Source: a virus
Taxonomy: Duplodnaviria; Caudoviricetes
Reading direction: 5' to 3' (one strand)
Virus record (IMG/VR): IMGVR_UViG_3300043443_000068
Span: 1-43,079 of that record
Length of the DNA: 43,079 nucleotides
The stretch's first letter is position 1, and each line of letters begins with the position of its first letter. The notes beneath the pieces were generated by a model. The model had not been told where the DNA came from. It ran no database searches and saw only the letters and a list, made by a program, of their open reading frames with translations. The position numbers were made by a program, and so were the translations under genes. This document shows, piece after piece, positions 13,781 to 43,079 of this stretch.

Positions 13781-14746
13781 TTAGATGGTGTTCTTGGTGA
13801 TAACAGACACCAGACACTCAGGACGATATAGCTTTAGACCGAAGCGGGCGTTCATCACGTACTCATCACGACGTAGGTCTTTGTTGCGCTCGTACTCTAC
13901 GCGGGGTAGCTGACGATAGGCACCAACGAAGGGGGTTAGGTCGCCACCAACAGACATGAATAGGTTCACGGTGGGGGTAGCAGGAACGGTAACACCGCCT
14001 AGGCTAGAACCAGCAGCTTCGGAAGCAGCAGGTAGGAAGTTGGAAACATAAACGTCGAAACCGAAGATGTTGCGGATGAAACGCATGCCGGTTACTTCGT
14101 TAACAAAGCCACCCTGAACAATACCCTCGAAAGCTGGGTTGTTGGTGAAAGCTTGTGCGCCAACTAGGGTGTTGAATACATATTCCTGTGAAGGATCAAT
14201 GATTGCAACACGGGTACCACCAGCTTGAGCCTTGTCTAGGGCATACTTAGCCTTAGCAAAGTCAGATAGTGCTAGGACGGTAGAAGAGCTACCAGAAGCA
14301 ACGAAACGATGGTCAGCACCGTTGATGGAGTTAGCGTTACCAGAGGTTTGCTGGTTGGCTAGAGAGAAAACAGAAGATTCTAGGTTCTCGTCTAGAGCAC
14401 GACGCATCTTGGTGGGAAACATGCCGATTAGCTGTTGAGCGTAGTAGCTGTCCTGCTTAGCCTTATCGGTAATGTAGGTAGCTGATTCGACATAACGGTC
14501 GATGGTGAAGTTGAATTCACCAGTGTCCATTGAGTCGTACACAACAGGGGTTAGTTCGGCAGTCTCGCGCATTGGTAGTTCACCAACGGAAGGGATGGTA
14601 AACTGGTTGCCATCGGGGAAGCCGTTGAGCATACGCACGTAGCGAGTGCCCATGAGTTGTTCTTGAAGAACATCTTTTAGTTCAGCAGACCATAGTTCAG
14701 CACGAACTAGGTTTGCATCAACTTTTGCAAAATCTACACCAGCCAT
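13781..14746 (-). CDS. major capsid protein
   Basis: 321 aa after the scaffold; ELWSAEL, IPSVG and FGFDVYVSN motifs of P22/T7-type coats; AAGGAG RBS. Confidence 0.9.
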   Translation of the reverse strand: MAGVDFAKVDANLVRAELWSAELKDVLQEQLMGTRYVRMLNGFPDGNQFTIPSVGELPMRETAELTPVVYDSMDTGEFNFTIDRYVESATYITDKAKQDSYYAQQLIGMFPTKMRRALDENLESSVFSLANQQTSGNANSINGADHRFVASGSSSTVLALSDFAKAKYALDKAQAGGTRVAIIDPSQEYVFNTLVGAQAFTNNPAFEGIVQGGFVNEVTGMRFIRNIFGFDVYVSNFLPAASEAAGSSLGGVTVPATPTVNLFMSVGGDLTPFVGAYRQLPRVEYERNKDLRRDEYVMNARFGLKLYRPECLVSVITKNTI

Positions 14747-28865: not shown

Positions 28866-30575
28866 ATGACTACCTACCTTGACGTAAAACAATTCGAGAC
28901 TTACGTAGCAGCATGTGCCCGCAATTCTGGTGTGTCGGTGTCGTGGGATACGTCCGACAGTGTGCCTCGCACTGATGGCAAACAGATGTGGCTACCTGCC
29001 ATTACTAGTAGCAGCACCGACGAGTGGCTAGCCCGCATGCGCTACTTTGTAAAGCACGAGACAAGCCACATCGTGCAGAGTGACTTCGACTATCTCAATG
29101 AGCAGGCACCTACCGGTCTACTGGCCCTCCTGAACAATCTAATTGAGGACCACCGCATTGACTACCGTAACGATGCGGAGTATGTGGGTGACAGGAAAAT
29201 TAGTAACGACTTCTGGACAATCCATGCCAAAGACATCACTAGTCGGTTGTCTGGCAAGGACAAAGAACTACAGGAACAACAGTTACTAGTATTGCCTGTG
29301 TTCGCATGGGATGCTGCCAATCGTGATTGGATTTACAGTAGTGCAGAATCCGTAGCGCAGATGCTTCCCTTGCTGGATGCGGAAGGACGCGAGCGTTACA
29401 AAAAGCTGCAAGCCTACACTGACGAGCTACTGGATGTGCGTGAGCACGGCGGTGCTGTAGAAGTTATGGAGCTTGCCAAGAAAATCCTCCGTGACTTGTA
29501 CGACGAAGACCCAGAGAAGTACTTGGACAAAGACAAGAGCAAAGGTAAAGGCAAGGGTGAGGGTGAGGGAGATGCTGACGACGGCAAGGGTGAGACGGTG
29601 TGTGATGACGTAGACCGACTCATTGAAGTTGACAAGCTGGTGGCATCTATGGGTCACGAGCACAAGCCTAGCCGTACTGGTATCCATCTTAAGCATGTAG
29701 AAAAGGGTAGTGGTGTCTATGCAATTCCTACCCCTGATGAGTACTACATCCTAGGGTTTGACAAGCCTGTGCCTGCGGTTATGCGTGAAGCTATTTCCAC
29801 ACATCCGTACTTCAATAGTGGGGAAGTACAAAGCTACATTACTAATAACGCTAAGCCGCTGTCCAACAAGCTACGCATCAAGCTTCAGACACGCAGCCGT
29901 GACCGGTATGAGTACGGTAAGAAGCGTGGTAAGCTGCACAATGGTAGTCTACATCGTGTGTTGCAGAAAGATAGCCCGATGGCAGAACGTGTGTTCCGTC
30001 AGCGTGTTACTAGTGACACACTTGACACTGCGGTATGCTTGCTGGTTGACTGTAGCGGTAGCATGTCAGGTAGCAAGTTTGAGATGGCATGTGCTGGTGC
30101 TGGCGCACTAGCTGAGGCACTCAAGCCCCTGAATATCTCCTACAGTGTTTACGGGTTTACTAACCTTGCATTTGACAGACTGGATAATCCTGTGGTATGG
30201 TTGTTCTCTGAGTTTGGAGAACGTGTGTCGCAGCCTGATCTAGTCAAGCGATTCAAGGTAGCATCCGGTGCGCTGTGGGACAATAGCGACGGTGATGCCA
30301 TTGCCTACGCATCCTATCGTCTGAGCCAACGCAAGGAACATCGCAAGGTACTCATTGTGCTGTCAGATGGTAGTCCTGCGGGTCGTGAGCGTGCTGGTGA
30401 TGTCACTGGCTACACGCACAAAGCTGTCCTAGATGCTGAGAATATGGGGATTGACACCTATGGTATTGGTATTCGTGATAATAATGTGCGTAATTTTTAT
30501 AAAAAGCACGTAGTTGTAGATCAACTAGACAAGCTTTCTCCTACCATTCTTTCAATTGTAGATCGGAGTATTTAA
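28866..30575 (+). CDS. CobT-like VWA-domain protein
   Basis: N-terminal HETSH; MIDAS DCSGSMSG; VLSDGSP. Confidence 0.85.
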   Translation: MTTYLDVKQFETYVAACARNSGVSVSWDTSDSVPRTDGKQMWLPAITSSSTDEWLARMRYFVKHETSHIVQSDFDYLNEQAPTGLLALLNNLIEDHRIDYRNDAEYVGDRKISNDFWTIHAKDITSRLSGKDKELQEQQLLVLPVFAWDAANRDWIYSSAESVAQMLPLLDAEGRERYKKLQAYTDELLDVREHGGAVEVMELAKKILRDLYDEDPEKYLDKDKSKGKGKGEGEGDADDGKGETVCDDVDRLIEVDKLVASMGHEHKPSRTGIHLKHVEKGSGVYAIPTPDEYYILGFDKPVPAVMREAISTHPYFNSGEVQSYITNNAKPLSNKLRIKLQTRSRDRYEYGKKRGKLHNGSLHRVLQKDSPMAERVFRQRVTSDTLDTAVCLLVDCSGSMSGSKFEMACAGAGALAEALKPLNISYSVYGFTNLAFDRLDNPVVWLFSEFGERVSQPDLVKRFKVASGALWDNSDGDAIAYASYRLSQRKEHRKVLIVLSDGSPAGRERAGDVTGYTHKAVLDAENMGIDTYGIGIRDNNVRNFYKKHVVVDQLDKLSPTILSIVDRSI

Positions 30576-30576
30576 C

Positions 30577-31620
30577 ATGAGCAGCCCTGACCTGAACGAC
30601 CGCGTAGCTAAAGCCATTGCAGAACACCTCGGCAAGGCACCAAAGACCGCAGCCCCCAAAGAACCCAAGCCTGCAGCTAAGGAACCTGTGGGTCTGAAGC
30701 CCGGTCAAGTTTGGTTCTCATCTGTGTTCGACTATCGTCCCAAGTTTGGCGACTTCGGAATCACTGCACCTGAGCCTGTCGTTAACCCAGAGGTTGCACG
30801 CCTGATCCCTTCTATTGATCCTGACTATGTTGTGCAGCGTGATGAAGCTGCATTACTAGTAGCGGGTATCGAGGATGGTGACAAGTCCCTGATCACTGGC
30901 CCTACTGGTAGCGGTAAGTCATCTCTGGTTAAGTATGTGTGTGCTAAGCTTAACCGCCCATTCATTCGCATTAACATGTCGGGTGACGTAGAGAGTGCAT
31001 CTCTGTTCGGTACGCTAGTTGTGCGTGGTGGTGCTACCGAGTGGGAAGATGGTGCCATCACTGAAGCAGCTAAGTACGGTGCTGTGTGTCTAGTTGACGA
31101 GTGGGAGCTTATGCCCGCAGAGATTGCCATGGGTATGCAGAACCTGTTGGAAGACGGTGGCTATCTCTATCTCAAGGAGAAGCCCGGTACTAGTGATGAT
31201 CGTACGATTGTCCCGCACAAGGACTTCCGTCTGGTGTTTGCTGGTAACACTGTGGGCCAGGGTGACACGACGGGTGCGTTCTCTGGTGTCGGTATCCAGA
31301 ACAGCGCAACTATCGACCGCTTCACCAACACTGTGCGTCTGGGCTACCTTAGCCAACAGCACGAGATTGACATCATTACTAGTAAGACCGACGTTGACAA
31401 AGACGTAGCTACTAAGATGGTGCGGTTTGCACACCTTGTGCGACAGGCATACGACAGTGGTAAGATTGGCCTCACTGTGTCACCACGTACCCTGATCAAT
31501 TGGGGTCGCAAGATGACTCGCTACGAGGCACAGTATGCCCTGCAAGTTAGCTTCCTTGAGAAGCTGACTCCTGACGACAGCAAGAGTGTGTCGGAGTTGT
31601 ACGTCAAAGTGTTTGGCTAA
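30577..31620 (+). CDS. CobS/MoxR-like AAA+ ATPase
   Basis: GPTGSGKS, CLVDE, FRLVFAGN, DRF, SPRTL. Confidence 0.9.
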   Translation: MSSPDLNDRVAKAIAEHLGKAPKTAAPKEPKPAAKEPVGLKPGQVWFSSVFDYRPKFGDFGITAPEPVVNPEVARLIPSIDPDYVVQRDEAALLVAGIEDGDKSLITGPTGSGKSSLVKYVCAKLNRPFIRINMSGDVESASLFGTLVVRGGATEWEDGAITEAAKYGAVCLVDEWELMPAEIAMGMQNLLEDGGYLYLKEKPGTSDDRTIVPHKDFRLVFAGNTVGQGDTTGAFSGVGIQNSATIDRFTNTVRLGYLSQQHEIDIITSKTDVDKDVATKMVRFAHLVRQAYDSGKIGLTVSPRTLINWGRKMTRYEAQYALQVSFLEKLTPDDSKSVSELYVKVFG

Positions 31621-31922
31621 TGTGCCACCAACACATCAGCGCGTTTGTATATGACAAGAGGGGGCGATTGCTTTCCTCTGGTCAGAACAGCTACGTGAAG
31701 ACACACCCGCTACAAGCACGTATTGCTGCGGAGGTAGGGGAACCCCACAAGGTTTTCCTGCATGCAGAGGTTGCAGCACTGGTTAAATGTGATTGGAACA
31801 AGGCACACCGAATACTAGTAACGCGCTATAACAAACAAGGCAAGCCCTTGCTGGCAAAGCCGTGCAAGGTCTGTCATCAAATTATTCGCATGACTAACAT
31901 CAAGATTGTGGAGCACACATGA
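31620..31922 (+). CDS. stand-alone Zn-dependent deaminase (CDA/TadA superfamily)
   Basis: LHAE and KPCKVC motifs; TAATG-coupled to the ATPase. Confidence 0.85.
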   Translation: MCHQHISAFVYDKRGRLLSSGQNSYVKTHPLQARIAAEVGEPHKVFLHAEVAALVKCDWNKAHRILVTRYNKQGKPLLAKPCKVCHQIIRMTNIKIVEHT

Positions 31923-32251: not shown

Positions 32252-32827
32252 ATGAGCATCGAAGTGATGAAGCAGGCGCTTGAGGCGCTGGAGAAGTCGG
32301 TTTCGACCTGTTTCGACAGGTATTCCCACGAGCAGGTGCTGAGCCGCCCAGAGCATTTTATCAATCAGACCATTACCGCCCTGCGCCTCGCCATTGAGCA
32401 GGCCGAGCGAGTTAAACGCGCAGAGGAAGCCTTTGCTGCAGCCAGCGATGAGATGAAAGGCGAGCAGGCCGAGCGGCAGGAGCTAGTGTGTGAATACTGC
32501 GGAGGCGACCGATTTATCGCCCCGCCCCAGCAACCCGAAGCCCTGCGGCTGGCTGATGAGATTGGCGAGGACTACTGCCGCTGCCTGCCTGCATACAAGG
32601 ATAGAGGCCGAACTGATCCGCAGTGCGAGTCCTGCAACACGGAAGACTGGCGACACGAGGCCGCCGCCGAACTGCGCCGCCTGCACAGCGTGAACGAGAA
32701 ACTGCTGGAGGCGCTGCACAGCATTAGCCTTGCATCCCAAGACTCAGGCAGCACCCGAGAAGGTATGGGCTTATACGCCCGCGCCGCAATCGCCGCCGCC
32801 ATCCGCGCAAGAAAGGAACTAAAATGA
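32252..32827 (+). CDS. hypothetical protein, GC-rich insert
   Basis: MSIEVMKQALEALE...AAAELRRLH...AAAIRAR; visibly higher GC. Confidence 0.7.
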   Translation: MSIEVMKQALEALEKSVSTCFDRYSHEQVLSRPEHFINQTITALRLAIEQAERVKRAEEAFAAASDEMKGEQAERQELVCEYCGGDRFIAPPQQPEALRLADEIGEDYCRCLPAYKDRGRTDPQCESCNTEDWRHEAAAELRRLHSVNEKLLEALHSISLASQDSGSTREGMGLYARAAIAAAIRARKELK

Positions 32828-35098: not shown

Positions 35099-35321
35099 GA
35101 ACGGCGATGTCTACATGGATGATGACGGGTATATGCGAGTTCTACTATCTAATACGTCGGATGTGTGGTTTACATATTTGGTACCAACAGAAAGCAAGTT
35201 TGCGTGGGTAAGTGAGCCTAGAGCAAAGGCATTCATTCCTGACGAAAGCAAGTACGTGATGAACATAAAGGACATGCTAGTCAGTGTGCGAGAGGAGTTG
35301 CTGAGTGAACCTAGTAATTGA
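35073..35321 (+). CDS. hypothetical protein
   Basis: Bridges helicase and polymerase genes. Confidence 0.55.
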   Translation: MSASGKSVKNGDVYMDDDGYMRVLLSNTSDVWFTYLVPTESKFAWVSEPRAKAFIPDESKYVMNIKDMLVSVREELLSEPSN

Positions 35322-37215
35322 CCTAGAGACAACCATGCGGTGCCCTGTTGGAAACAACGCGGCTAATCCTATGTGGCCCGCCAATAAGGCAGTGGCATAC
35401 GGAGCTATGTGGTTAGACACAGAGTTAGAAACCTATGCACATGCTTATGCAAAAGAGGGTTTAGATCTAGACGTACTGCGAGAAGCGTGTGATAGGGCTA
35501 GCATTGTGGTGGGTCACAACGTCAAGTTCGACTTGCTGTACGTCTACCGCAATACTAGTGACAAGCTTCCCCGTATCTGGGATACGCAGCTAGCCGCCTA
35601 CATTCTCAGTGCACAACAGCATCTGTACGCTAGCCTAGACGACTTGACGCTACAGTATATTGGGGCACATGCACTGAAGGATGACAAGATCAAAGCCTAC
35701 TGGAAAGCTGGTGTACGCACTGAAGACATTCCAAAGGGTGAGCTACTGTCCTACCTAGAAGGTGATGTACGTAACACTACAGCCATTTTCAAAGAGCAGT
35801 GGGACGAGTGTGAGAAGCTAGACTTGCTACCTCTGATGCTCACACAGATGGATGCACTACGTGCCACCATTGAGATGAATCGTAACGGTATGCGGGTTGA
35901 CTGGCACTACGTAGATCTACAGCGCAAGGCATACAGTCAGGTGCTGAAGGCAGCTAGGGAAGATGCAGAGGAACTAGCGCCCGGTGTAGACACTGCTAGT
36001 CCTAAACAACTGTCCCTCTACTTCTTTGGTGGAGAGGAAAAATATAAGGAGAAAGAACAAGATGGCTTTTATAAGAACGGTAATCCACGCTTTAAAACTG
36101 TGGAAAAGATTCGTAAGATCGAAGGTAAATACCCACCTCCGGGGGAGCTAGGTAAGGGTGGCTATTACAGCACTGACGATAGTGTGCTGCGCGAACTAGC
36201 ATACAATCGTGCTGACCGTCTTGCCGAAACATTACTAATAATCCGTGAGTCTAGCAAGATCAAGGAGACATACTACGACGGCCTGAATAGTCTGCGGTTT
36301 CTAGATGACAACATCTATCCTAATCTCAATCACTGTTCAACCAAGACAGGACGGCTATCCTCCACTAACCCCAACCTACAGAACCAGACAGACGCAGGTG
36401 ACGTGAAGCGTTCCTACGTTAGTCGCTACGGAGACAATGGTCGCATCCTAGAGCTAGACTATTCGCAGCTAGAGATGGTTGCACTGGCCTACCTAGCAGA
36501 TGACAAGCAACTTATCGACGACATCAACAATGGGCGAGACATGCACCGAGAGCTGTACAAAGGCATGTATGGTGTGTATCCCACTGACAAAGAGCGCAAG
36601 CCATTCAAGCGGTTTAGCTTTCTGCTGGTGTATGGTGGTGGAGTTGCTACGTTGATGGCACAGAGTGGTTGCGACAAAGCCACTGCAAAGAAGTTCATCA
36701 ACACGTTCTACACACGCTACAAAGGAGTGAAGGAGTACCATGAGCGAATCGTAAAGGAAGCTGAAGCTAAGGCAGTGGTTAGCTACTTAGCCGACAAGAC
36801 TGGCCCCGAATATCACTACTACCATGCTAGTCCCACTGGTAGGCACTACATCTTCAAGAAGTATCCTAACGAATACAAGGGTGGGCTATCGTTCAGTCCT
36901 ACCGAGTTGAAGAACTGGCCCATTCAAGGCTTTGCCACTGGCGACGTTGTACCTATGATGGTGGGTCTACTTCTCAACAACCTAGAGAAGGAAGGCTTGC
37001 ATGAGGAAGCGAAACTAGTAATGACTGTGCACGACAGCGTAGTGCTTGACGTACCAGAAAAACTACTATACAATGTAGCTTCAGTTGCAAAAGATACTTT
37101 AGAGGCTGCTCCGTCATATCTAAAGGCTATCTTCAATATTGACTTCCCATGCAAACTAAGCGTAGGCGTGGAAGCAGGAATTAACTGGCAAGACAAAGAG
37201 GAAATTAAACTATGA
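35305..37215 (+). CDS. polA: family A DNA polymerase with 3'-5' exonuclease domain
   Basis: DLET, GHNVKFD, TGRLSS.NPNLQN, DYSQLE, RxxxKxxxFxxxYG, NWPIQG, VHDS. Confidence 0.95.
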   Translation: MNLVIDLETTMRCPVGNNAANPMWPANKAVAYGAMWLDTELETYAHAYAKEGLDLDVLREACDRASIVVGHNVKFDLLYVYRNTSDKLPRIWDTQLAAYILSAQQHLYASLDDLTLQYIGAHALKDDKIKAYWKAGVRTEDIPKGELLSYLEGDVRNTTAIFKEQWDECEKLDLLPLMLTQMDALRATIEMNRNGMRVDWHYVDLQRKAYSQVLKAAREDAEELAPGVDTASPKQLSLYFFGGEEKYKEKEQDGFYKNGNPRFKTVEKIRKIEGKYPPPGELGKGGYYSTDDSVLRELAYNRADRLAETLLIIRESSKIKETYYDGLNSLRFLDDNIYPNLNHCSTKTGRLSSTNPNLQNQTDAGDVKRSYVSRYGDNGRILELDYSQLEMVALAYLADDKQLIDDINNGRDMHRELYKGMYGVYPTDKERKPFKRFSFLLVYGGGVATLMAQSGCDKATAKKFINTFYTRYKGVKEYHERIVKEAEAKAVVSYLADKTGPEYHYYHASPTGRHYIFKKYPNEYKGGLSFSPTELKNWPIQGFATGDVVPMMVGLLLNNLEKEGLHEEAKLVMTVHDSVVLDVPEKLLYNVASVAKDTLEAAPSYLKAIFNIDFPCKLSVGVEAGINWQDKEEIKL

Positions 37216-40262: not shown

Positions 40263-40910
40263 ATGAGCGAGGTCAACTTAGTATGGACGACCCCGGATGG
40301 GGAGAAGCAGATAGCTTACATGGCGCGGGTGTCAAATCCTGATAACCAAGACAACCCTGAGTCAGCCAAGCTTCTTAAATATCTAGTGCGTAACAAACAC
40401 TGGAGTCCATTTGAGATGGTGAATGTCTGTATGGAAATCACCACGACACGAGACATTGCACGGCAGATCCTGCGTCACCGTAGCTTCAGCTTTCAGGAGT
40501 TCAGCCAGCGTTATGCAGAGGCAAGCGACTTTGAGATGAGCGAGGTTCGACGACAAGACACTGTTAATCGACAGAACAGCATTGATGTCAACCCTGCAAC
40601 GTCCGATACAGATCGACAACTAGCCTACTGGTGGCAAGGTATTCAGAGTAAAATCCTGAATGACGTAGAGTTTCTGTACAAGAGTGCGTTAGATAAAGGC
40701 ATTGCCAAAGAGGTTGCCCGTAAGATACTACCTGAAGGCATGACTGTTTCTAAGATGTATATGAACGGTACGCTACGCAGTTGGATTCACTACGTAGAGC
40801 TACGCACAGAAGCAGGTACACAGAAGGAACATCGTCAAGTTGCTTTACAATGTAAGGATGTTCTGGTACAATGTTACCCTTTCTTGGAGGAACTATGGCA
40901 GCGTGGTTAA
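40263..40910 (+). CDS. thyX: flavin-dependent thymidylate synthase
   Basis: HWSPFE; RHRSFSFQEFSQRY; GTLRSW; QKEH. Confidence 0.95.
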   Translation: MSEVNLVWTTPDGEKQIAYMARVSNPDNQDNPESAKLLKYLVRNKHWSPFEMVNVCMEITTTRDIARQILRHRSFSFQEFSQRYAEASDFEMSEVRRQDTVNRQNSIDVNPATSDTDRQLAYWWQGIQSKILNDVEFLYKSALDKGIAKEVARKILPEGMTVSKMYMNGTLRSWIHYVELRTEAGTQKEHRQVALQCKDVLVQCYPFLEELWQRG

Positions 40911-41041: not shown

Positions 41042-41274
41042 TTAGCGAAGTAGATATTAATGACATGAAAGCACTGTATGACTTGGATAACAACACGTAT
41101 TTCAAACTTGCTCCTACAGATGTCGTGTCAGTTCCACCTGACAGTAACGAGTTTCACCTCTCAGGGGTGTATAAATTTCTGGGTCTTGATGGAATGTATA
41201 GCCGCTGTCTTGACGAAGCTGGGAATCTACATCACTTTGCAGCGTGGACTAACGTAATTCCGTGGAACGAGTGA
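41038..41274 (+). CDS. hypothetical protein
   Basis: GGAGG RBS, GTG start. Confidence 0.65.
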   Translation: MISEVDINDMKALYDLDNNTYFKLAPTDVVSVPPDSNEFHLSGVYKFLGLDGMYSRCLDEAGNLHHFAAWTNVIPWNE

Positions 41275-41798
41275 GGAACGACGGGGAGTGGACAGAGGGT
41301 CGCTATAGATCGTTCATTACTAGTACGCTACGTGGTGGGATGAGACGGTGGCCCCCTAAGTGGAAGGCACTGAAGAAGGCAGAGTTAGGTAGGAAAACAA
41401 ACAAGAAGACAGGCAAGCTAGCCATGCACTACCTGTGTGGCATGTGTAACGAAGAGCACACAGCCAAGGATGTACAGGTAGACCATATTCAGCCAGTAGT
41501 AGACCCTGCTACTGGTTTCGTTTCTTGGGACTTGTACATTGATCGTTTGTTTTGTGAGAAAGACAACCTGCAAGTATTGTGCACCAAGTGCCACAAACTA
41601 AAGACAAAGGAAGAGAATGAATCTACGAGAGTATCAAGAGCTAGCAACAAGGTTCGCACTACCGACAGCCCTAAACCGCGAGTATCTAAGCCTAGGGCTA
41701 GCAGCAGAAGCGGGGGAAGTAGCAAGCCTAGTAGCAAAAGCAGTACGAGACAGCGACGGGAACCTAAACCGAGAGTCGTTAAAAAAAGAGTTAGGTGA
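41262..41798 (+). CDS. HNH endonuclease
   Basis: CGMC...VDHIQP...NLQVLCTKCH.LKT. Confidence 0.85.
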   Translation: MERVRNDGEWTEGRYRSFITSTLRGGMRRWPPKWKALKKAELGRKTNKKTGKLAMHYLCGMCNEEHTAKDVQVDHIQPVVDPATGFVSWDLYIDRLFCEKDNLQVLCTKCHKLKTKEENESTRVSRASNKVRTTDSPKPRVSKPRASSRSGGSSKPSSKSSTRQRREPKPRVVKKRVR

Positions 41799-41931
41799 TG
41801 TGCTATGGTTCGTTGCTGTGCTAGGCCAACACTACAACATTGACATGCTAGACTTAGCTATGGGCAATATTAATAAACTACGCAGCCGTGCATCGCGTGG
41901 TGTTATTGGAGGAAGTGGAGATGACCGATAA
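41617..41931 (+). CDS. mazG: MazG-like nucleotide pyrophosphohydrolase
   Basis: LGLAAEAGEV; KELGDVLW; NINKL..R..RG.I.GSGD.R. Confidence 0.9.
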   Translation: MNLREYQELATRFALPTALNREYLSLGLAAEAGEVASLVAKAVRDSDGNLNRESLKKELGDVLWFVAVLGQHYNIDMLDLAMGNINKLRSRASRGVIGGSGDDR

Positions 41932-42227: not shown

Positions 42228-43079
42228 CACTTGGTACTTACGAAACTTTCATTGCGAAAAGCCGCTACTCACGATTCCTAGACGACAAGAATCGTCGAGA
42301 GCATTGGCCTGAAACTGTAGACCGCTACATGAACTTCATGAATCAGCAGCTACAGAAGAAGCATAACTACTCTATTCCACCATCCCTATACACGGAGCTA
42401 CATGCAGCCATCCTAAACTGCGAGGTGATGCCCTCCATGCGGGCTATGATGACTGCAGGTGATGCTCTGGAGCGAGACAACACTGCAGGTTACAACTGTT
42501 CCTACCTGCCTGTGGATGATGTTAAATCCTTCGACGAGGCTATGTATATCCTGCTGTGCGGCACGGGTGTCGGCTTCTCTGTAGAAAGCAAGTATGTCAA
42601 CAAACTACCTGAAGTACCTACGCAGCTATTTAATAGCGATACTACTATCGTTGTGTCTGACAGCAAAGCTGGTTGGGCCAAAGCCCTACGTCAGCTTATC
42701 GCCCTACTGTATTCCGGGGAAGTACCAAAATGGGACACCTCTAAAGTCCGTCCGGCAGGGGCACGCCTTAAAGTCTTTGGTGGTCGAGCTAGCGGCCCTA
42801 AACCCCTCATTTCACTCTTTGAATTTGTTACTAGTAAGTTTAAAGGTGCGGCGGGACGTAAACTTACCAGCCTGGAGTGCCATGACATTATGTGCAAGAT
42901 TGGCGAAGTCGTGGTTGTTGGTGGGGTACGTCGATCAGCGATGATTAGCCTCAGTGATTTGTCAGATGATCGGATGCGGCATGCAAAAGCAGGACAATGG
43001 TGGGAGCGAGAAGGACAACGAGCACTTGCAAACAACAGTGCATGCTATAATGACAAACCCACTGTTGGAGAGTTTATGT
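42224..43079 (+). CDS. nrdJ: class II (B12-dependent) ribonucleotide reductase, 3'-truncated by the window
   Basis: SRYSR, PSMRAMMTAG, YNCSY, GTGVGFSVE, GGRASGP, GGVRRSA, RALANNS; frame open to the window end, so absent from the ORF track. Confidence 0.9.
   Translation, partial: MTLGTYETFIAKSRYSRFLDDKNRREHWPETVDRYMNFMNQQLQKKHNYSIPPSLYTELHAAILNCEVMPSMRAMMTAGDALERDNTAGYNCSYLPVDDVKSFDEAMYILLCGTGVGFSVESKYVNKLPEVPTQLFNSDTTIVVSDSKAGWAKALRQLIALLYSGEVPKWDTSKVRPAGARLKVFGGRASGPKPLISLFEFVTSKFKGAAGRKLTSLECHDIMCKIGEVVVVGGVRRSAMISLSDLSDDRMRHAKAGQWWEREGQRALANNSACYNDKPTVGEFM

Follow-up and report, generated by a model that had tools for sequence, protein, structure and literature searches.

A short viral deaminase family, associated with a CTG-to-CTA switch in phage genes, as a candidate editor of the host tRNA-Leu(CAG) anticodon

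A 100-aa deaminase encoded in the early gene block of a podophage has intact catalytic motifs, belongs to a distinct viral family, and is tracked by a switch of leucine codons from CTG to CTA in the phages that carry it. We propose, with moderate confidence, that this protein edits the host tRNA-Leu(CAG), converting C34 to U. We infer each biochemical step of this proposal: the substrate is likely to be a tRNA, the edited base C34, and the tRNA that reading CUG. The established way for a phage to adapt translation to its own codons is to carry tRNA genes. The stretch of DNA that we analysed (the window; 43,079 nucleotides, IMG/VR record IMGVR_UViG_3300043443_000068) comes from a podophage related to the Zobellviridae, its capsid protein being 44–47% identical to those of SIO1, P12053L and the ICBM phages, and a search of the window for tRNA genes returned none.

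The preliminary description of this DNA had reported a stand-alone HAE/PCxxC deaminase lying apart from thyX, nrdJ and mazG and coupled to a VWA/MoxR pair. The ORF is real (Table 1): the MoxR stop overlaps its ATG (TAATG), its own stop overlaps the ATG of the next ORF, and thyX, mazG and the partial nrdJ are indeed found about 8–11 kb downstream. The coupling to VWA/MoxR holds within the clade of the window but not beyond it, and a general link was rejected, since the deaminase genes of the phiKZ-like phage SL2, of DES1 and of Karimac sit among small unannotated genes. Some neighbourhoods have features of their own: in the unrelated Aeromonas phage 2L372X the sixth gene upstream of the deaminase encodes an ATPase (L064:350-1501); DES1 has a single tRNA gene, for Arg(UCU) (L063:19544-19619), situated ~380 bases upstream; and in record G001 19 tRNAs are called in a cluster (L061:64-5887) 4–10 kb upstream. 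Within the window, an HNH endonuclease gene (41262-41798) is located between thyX and mazG and overlaps mazG in another frame.

Table 1. Features of the window that bear on the deaminase and on leucine codon use
Feature	Position	Strand	Remarks
Major capsid protein	13781..14746	-	21/25 Leu codons are CTA, 1 is CTG
VWA/CobT-like protein	28866..30575	+	early (14 CTG, 14 CTA)
MoxR/CobS-like AAA ATPase	30577..31620	+	early, CTG-rich (12 CTG, 3 CTA)
Candidate zinc deaminase ORF, 100 aa	31620..31922	+	HAE (48-50), PCKVC (81-85), pI 9.9
Early-region ORF	32252..32827	+	11 CTG vs 2 CTA; within the CTG-rich early block
DNA polymerase	35305..37215	+	middle gene, shifted to CTA (32 CTA, 15 CTG)
ThyX-type thymidylate synthase	40263..40910	+	
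MazG-like gene	41617..41931	+	CTA is 13/16 Leu codons
Partial nrdJ (class II ribonucleotide reductase)	42230-43078		leaves the window at its end; 83% identity to the G090 copy

The deaminase family is basic and almost purely viral. A tblastn search (E 0.01) matched 228 phage records, including 57 Synechococcus phages and 47 records from Pseudomonas, those among the matches listed being all phiKZ-like; enterobacterial jumbo phages, Aeromonas myoviruses, Streptomyces phages and the Xanthomonas phage DES1 are further carriers, and metagenomes hold 952 homologues. The phiKZ orthologue is PHIKZ260 (37% identity). In the ESM Atlas only viral PF00383 clusters were found, 94–100% viral, and 400 genomes from the class of Pseudomonas gave a single weak match; that lone bacterial ORF (L616:1372-1800) has the KTHP motif and may be a viral contig in the bin. 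The family members inspected are stand-alone proteins of 100–128 aa, with Karimac encoding a distant one, and N23, K27, T28, H29, H48, E50, R69, P81, C82 and C85, among others, are invariant in 66/66 aligned homologues. All 26 members tested have a pI of 8.7–10.2, a basic charge that would fit a nucleic-acid substrate; the pI values of two dCMP deaminases from phages are 6.3 and 6.7.

The ORF matches Pfam dCMP_cyt_deam_1 under the curated cut-off (E 5e-5) and PHROG174, named dCMP deaminase, at E 9e-11; the NCBIfam profile search returned zero matches, TadA model NF008113 included, and a sequence search of the PDB returned designed repeat proteins only. Judged by sequence against the clade marks of the deaminase superfamily given in the available parts of PMC3239186, Table 1 included, the family fits none of the three clades dCMP deaminase, TadA and Bd3614. 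With dCMP deaminases (T4 cd, ComEB; PF00383, PHROG174) it shares the HxE/PCxxC zinc core, the Asn at the end of strand 2, a fold match of Z about 7 and an occurrence in dsDNA phages. However, it lacks their NxxP after strand 2 (N-S-Y-V-K-T-H-P, where two dCMP deaminases of phages have NGMP/NGTP), their NA after HxE (HAEVAAL as against HSESNAL/HAEMNAL) and their TxxxT in strand 3 (ILVTRY as against TLFCT/TLYTT), as well as their extra Zn site, the insert having no conserved Cys and the protein stopping at strand 4; moreover, it is basic and not neutral, and it co-occurs with true dCMP deaminases. TadA and ADAT2 have in common with it the fold (Z 6.8–7.0), the HAE, the strand-2 Asn (N23, also present in dCMP deaminases) and, if our proposal holds, tRNA position 34 as the target, but their EPCxMC is absent here (AKPCKVC), strand 5 and the C-terminal helices are missing, and the reaction of TadA is A-to-I. 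The Bd3614-like proteins also lack strand 5, but their HAExN and the Met of their CxMxC are missing here, and the Pfam score is 19.6 bits against a cut-off of 38.5.

The predicted structure (pLDDT 91) runs from strand 1 to strand 4, without helix 1 and with nothing past strand 4; in the SL2, PBECO4 and cyanophage members an N-terminal extension stands at the expected place of helix 1. HxE and PCxxC lie on a deaminase fold (Z up to 7.9), which places the protein in the CDA-fold zinc deaminase superfamily. The best Foldseek matches in the PDB are human dCMP deaminase and CDAs (TM 0.55–0.62); TadA and CDAT8 are absent among the matches listed, but tie by Z in a second fold comparison, in which CDA, GuaD, dCMP deaminase, TadA and CDAT8 are equally near (Z 6.4–7.9). 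The comparison with TadA, CDAT8 and dCMP deaminase that had been suggested earlier thus confirms the deaminase fold but singles out no class, and structure does not name the substrate. Among the BFVD fold neighbours (TM 0.6–0.7) are short giant-virus deaminases from Feldmannia virus, Solivirus, Catovirus and an iridescent virus.

Three known C-to-U editors of tRNA resemble the proposed enzyme in what they do. CDAT8 of Methanopyrus, which is fused to a THUMP domain, edits C8 to U and can be superposed on the window protein (3g8q, Z 6.4, rmsd 1.7 over 64 residues), but it is a 278-aa chain acting at another position, whereas here a lone 100-aa core is found. TrcP of Vibrio, in the part of its description available, is likewise a C-to-U tRNA editor but modifies C32. 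The chemistry that we propose is that of TbmCDAT, the Trypanosoma mitochondrial cytidine deaminase which, according to the available text of PMC8677022, changes C34 of tRNA-Trp to U34 and so the codon read, UGA then being decoded; its likeness to the phage protein is one of proposed chemistry, and it edits the organelle's own tRNA in a eukaryote.

In the window, CTA dominates the capsid gene (Table 1) and the gene next to it (7/8 Leu codons), and accounts for 43% of Leu codons in nine pooled late genes; the CTA preference previously ascribed to late genes is therefore real, but it is not theirs only, as it extends to the polymerase (32 of its 69 Leu codons) and mazG. When same-strand early and middle genes are compared, a split inferred from gene order, CTA/CTG goes from 25/46 to 85/43 (p=3e-5) and TTA/TTG also shifts (p=5e-4), while CCA/CCG changes weakly (p=0.035) and nine other pairs do not (p>0.15); a clear shift is seen only in leucine codon pairs. 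The cross-strand contrast of CTA between early and late genes was not used, since every codon box shows a strand difference. Genome-wide, the A3 share is high in most boxes.

Across phages, the capsid gene has more CTA than CTG in 22/26 carriers and 3/23 non-carriers, and CTA makes up at least 30% of capsid Leu codons in 18/26 and 0/23, respectively (Fisher p about 1e-7, a value inflated by kinship, the genomes not being independent). The carriers comprise the window, 11 cultured phages chosen from the 228 records so as to cover different groups, and 14 IMG/VR records in which a capsid gene was located; G001, G044, G058, G096 and other fragments without one were left out. Most capsid-bearing IMG/VR records are fragments in which the deaminase cannot be scored. 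Without the distant Karimac the counts are 21/25 and 17/25. The correlation with CTA bias anticipated in the preliminary description has thus largely held over several unrelated groups, with matched controls in about three: the clade of the window, the phiKZ relatives and the cyanophages.

The contrast is sharpest in the phiKZ relatives. The capsid gene of SL2 (L185:5805-8048) contains 44 CTA, 1 CTG, 0 TTA, 7 CTC and 11 CTT, and its putative chimallin gene, so named from the start of its sequence, 35 CTA, 3 CTG and 0 TTA, the sole Leu tRNA of this phage being UAA. In the gene-less sister jumbo phages PhiPA3, PA1C, 201phi2-1, RVTF4 and Noxifer, by contrast, there are 0 CTA and 56–63 CTG; PA11, Klyazma, GP100 and SIO1 also have 0 CTA, the last three scored as gene-less by the Pfam model only. 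SL2 is AT-rich (36.9% GC), but its capsid gene keeps CCG (21, vs 0 CCA) and CAG (19 vs 10), and that of DES1, with 12 CTA and 2 CTG, keeps CCG (14/0) and CAG (11/2) as well, which argues that the switch is not a general A-ending drift. In PBECO4, G072 and ACG-2014f, the capsid genes do end in A in most boxes. Separately, TCG is at 0 in the SL2 capsid gene and at 11–17 in PhiPA3, PA1C and 201phi2-1 (L199-L201), TCA showing no matching rise; tRNA-Ser(CGA) may be a second target.

In the cyanophages, carriers without tRNA-Leu(UAG) show CTA/CTG counts of 13/4 (S-SCSM1), 6/0 (ACG-2014f, where CTT and CTC exceed CTA), 14/0 (S-CAM7) and 20/1 (Sf-CH8), and 5/8 non-carriers have 0–1 CTA. Of the other non-carriers, S-PM2 (9/1) and S-CAM1 (6/8) both encode Leu(UAG), which was looked up only after their codons had been seen. 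S-CRM01 (L571, L654-L656) has a capsid gene with 11 CTA and 5 CTG, lacks the deaminase and has no Leu(UAG) among the tRNAs read. Among cyanophage-like gp23 genes, 2/77 have at least 40% CTA, both on fragments too short for deaminase scoring. The PBECO4 capsid gene has 24 CTA and 0 CTG, with no Leu tRNA in 6 of 7 tRNA matches read.

Not every genome follows this pattern. Four carriers have no codon switch, three of them being CTG-rich and without Leu(UAG) (CTA/CTG 1/11 in Aeromonas 2L372X, 0/10 in G067 and 0/11 in G090); G075 uses CTT and CTC in its capsid gene, G095 (TTG) and G058 tend towards TTG or TTA, and G098 has 7 CTA and 6 CTG without the deaminase. On the deaminase tree, the carriers that depart from the pattern are not grouped together.

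In the clade of the window, 80 close capsid genes range from 0 to 82% CTA and fall into a CTA-rich and a TTG-rich group (L072-L151), a split that holds even at 94–95% capsid identity and may mark the gene or the host. The deaminase was found in 3/42 clade records searched, most of them fragments. Six of seven clade carriers have 6–21 CTA and 0–1 CTG in the capsid gene, CTA/Leu being 21/25 in the window, 18/22 in G029, 10/22 in G038, 14/25 in G042, 6/21 in G049 and 15/22 in G056. The exception is the complete genome of G090, whose capsid gene has 0 CTA and 11 CTG and whose polymerase and VWA genes have CTA/CTG of 20/6 and 6/24. Five near-complete non-carriers (G009, G010, G013, G014 and G015, which represent one clade) have 0–1 CTA of 24 in capsid genes 94–95% identical to that of the window; the sister record G024 has 1 of 23, but stops short of the slot of the gene. 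On a MoxR tree the deaminase has a scattered distribution, including a loss (L621, L623) that falls within a group of carriers. Since the clade non-carriers use TTG instead of CTG, and their AGA and ATA frequencies are different too, a host difference may confound or contribute to this contrast. In the middle genes, CTA/(CTA+CTG) does not separate carriers from non-carriers of the clade, and CTA/Leu does so with overlap (0.22–0.43 vs 0.13–0.33). In AT-rich clade carriers (G058, L310-L312; G049, L198) TTA exceeds TTG, by 81 to 31 in the largest gene, and editing of tRNA-Leu(CAA) is possible there.

CTA is preferred in 15/18 scanned carriers without tRNA-Leu(UAG), in agreement with the anticorrelation that had been predicted between the two genes, but in its strict form this was rejected, because five carriers (G001, G072, G075, Karimac and SCTP-2) have both. 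Hosts have a native tRNA-Leu(UAG), so the need for an edited anticodon would be quantitative. In the carrier G095, one ARAGORN prediction (L331:16824-16894) is a tRNA whose anticodon is TTA (ochre). We also looked for C34U in RNA, using Logan contigs from 4/24 listed RNA runs over the tRNA-Leu(CAG) gene of P. paraeruginosa (C34 at L544:265). In the phiKZ-containing runs X12 and X10 and in the control X21, contigs, which drop minor variants, read C at 34 with no variant of at least 1%, and the contig of the infected run X1 stops at 264, the base before C34, an ambiguous result. G37 of tRNA-Leu(CAG) is modified, and the contigs, from runs whose infection times are not given, show no misreading there, which suggests precursor reads and makes the C34 test a weak one; the change that had been predicted was not seen, in an assay insensitive to it.

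According to the mechanism that we favour, the early phage deaminase would convert C34 of the host CUG-reading tRNA-Leu(CAG) to U, and the resulting UAG anticodon would favour CUA, the codon used by the phage capsid gene. Bacterial LeuRS ignores the anticodon, so the edited tRNA should stay charged, and an edit that stays within the four-codon CUN box cannot alter the amino acid inserted. According to the available part of PMC13602947, codons ending in G are read more poorly by unmodified U34 than by xo5U34, so that a U34 without xo5U would account for the loss of CTG. The CUG-rich mRNAs of the host and the early mRNAs of the phage would be slowed, and the CUA-rich middle and late mRNAs would gain. 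The deaminase would take the place of a phage-encoded tRNA-Leu(UAG), with better CUA decoding as the same outcome; but where such genes add a tRNA, it would convert the host's own, draining the preferred tRNA of the host and removing CUG decoding at once. By dRNA-seq mapping of early infection, PHIKZ260 is assigned a primary TSS of its own, in the part of PMC8244752 available. That the widespread family, PHIKZ260 included, flips host decoding from CUG to CUA early in infection, as a temporal switch for which no phage tRNA is needed, is in our judgement an evenly balanced proposition.

The deaminase could instead be a minimal dCMP or cytidine deaminase feeding dUMP to ThyX, the conventional alternative named in the preliminary description, with the codon pattern a coincidence. 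The name of PHROG174 and the best Foldseek matches agree with this, as does the presence in the window of thyX, mazG and nrdJ with no second deaminase of the same family in its ORF scan. However, the sequence marks and second Zn site of dCMP deaminases are missing and the codon association is left unexplained; PBECO4 and G001 encode a canonical dCMP deaminase in addition to the family member, SL2 a dCTP deaminase common to the gene-less PhiPA3, and G009, G013 and G015 (98–100% complete) have thyX without the deaminase. Because three carriers already encode a deaminase for dCMP or dCTP, and the gene is missing from close relatives that have thyX, a role in dUMP supply looks redundant, and we regard it as quite improbable.

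Two other possibilities keep a nucleic acid as the substrate. The enzyme could disable a host leucine tRNA, by acting on another base or by triggering cleavage, so that the native tRNA-Leu(UAG) is the fallback and CTG is avoided; T-even phages have host tRNA-Leu cleaved. Most carrier capsid genes are nearly CTG-free, ACG-2014f avoids CTG yet places CTT and CTC above CTA, carriers with their own Leu(UAG) fit a knock-out-and-replace design, and the X1 contig end one base before C34 would agree, although it is ambiguous and we do not otherwise take it as evidence. We nevertheless consider this reading rather unlikely, as conversion is favoured over destruction by SL2, in which CTA stands far above CTC, CTT and TTA in spite of its own UAA tRNA; together with the absence of CTA in its gene-less sisters, this excess would point to a gain of CUA decoding and not to a loss of CUG decoding alone. 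Alternatively, the target could be wider or different (several C34 tRNAs, another RNA, or DNA), the leucine pattern being one facet of it or a correlate of an AT-rich, lytic way of life and of the choice of host. The missing TCG of SL2, the TTA/TTG shift in the window, the high genome-wide A3 share, the scatter of counter-examples over the deaminase tree and the giant-virus proteins among the fold neighbours are all in keeping with such a target; the retention of CCG and CAG in SL2 and DES1 and the strength of the codon bias in the most abundant proteins speak against it, and we think it unlikely. A mutational origin of the pattern, from CAG to TAG in DNA, has little support: such a process should deplete C before AG, but SL2 shows no depletion there (0.22, against 0.20 before AA) and the window a mild one.

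A search of the open-access literature (subscription papers lying outside its scope) returned neither a phage enzyme acting as an editor of host anticodons nor any function for PHIKZ260. The C34-to-U chemistry itself is known from TbmCDAT (PMC8677022, in the part available), and its use by viruses would be new. If the proposal is true, it explains why CUA fills the capsid and nuclear-shell genes of phiKZ and is missing from those of close Pseudomonas relatives; a family whose members in hundreds of genomes now bear the annotation dCMP deaminase would be reassigned; and a chain of 100 aa would suffice as a C-to-U RNA editor. The proposal can be tested in a model system, with PHIKZ260 in phiKZ and PAO1.
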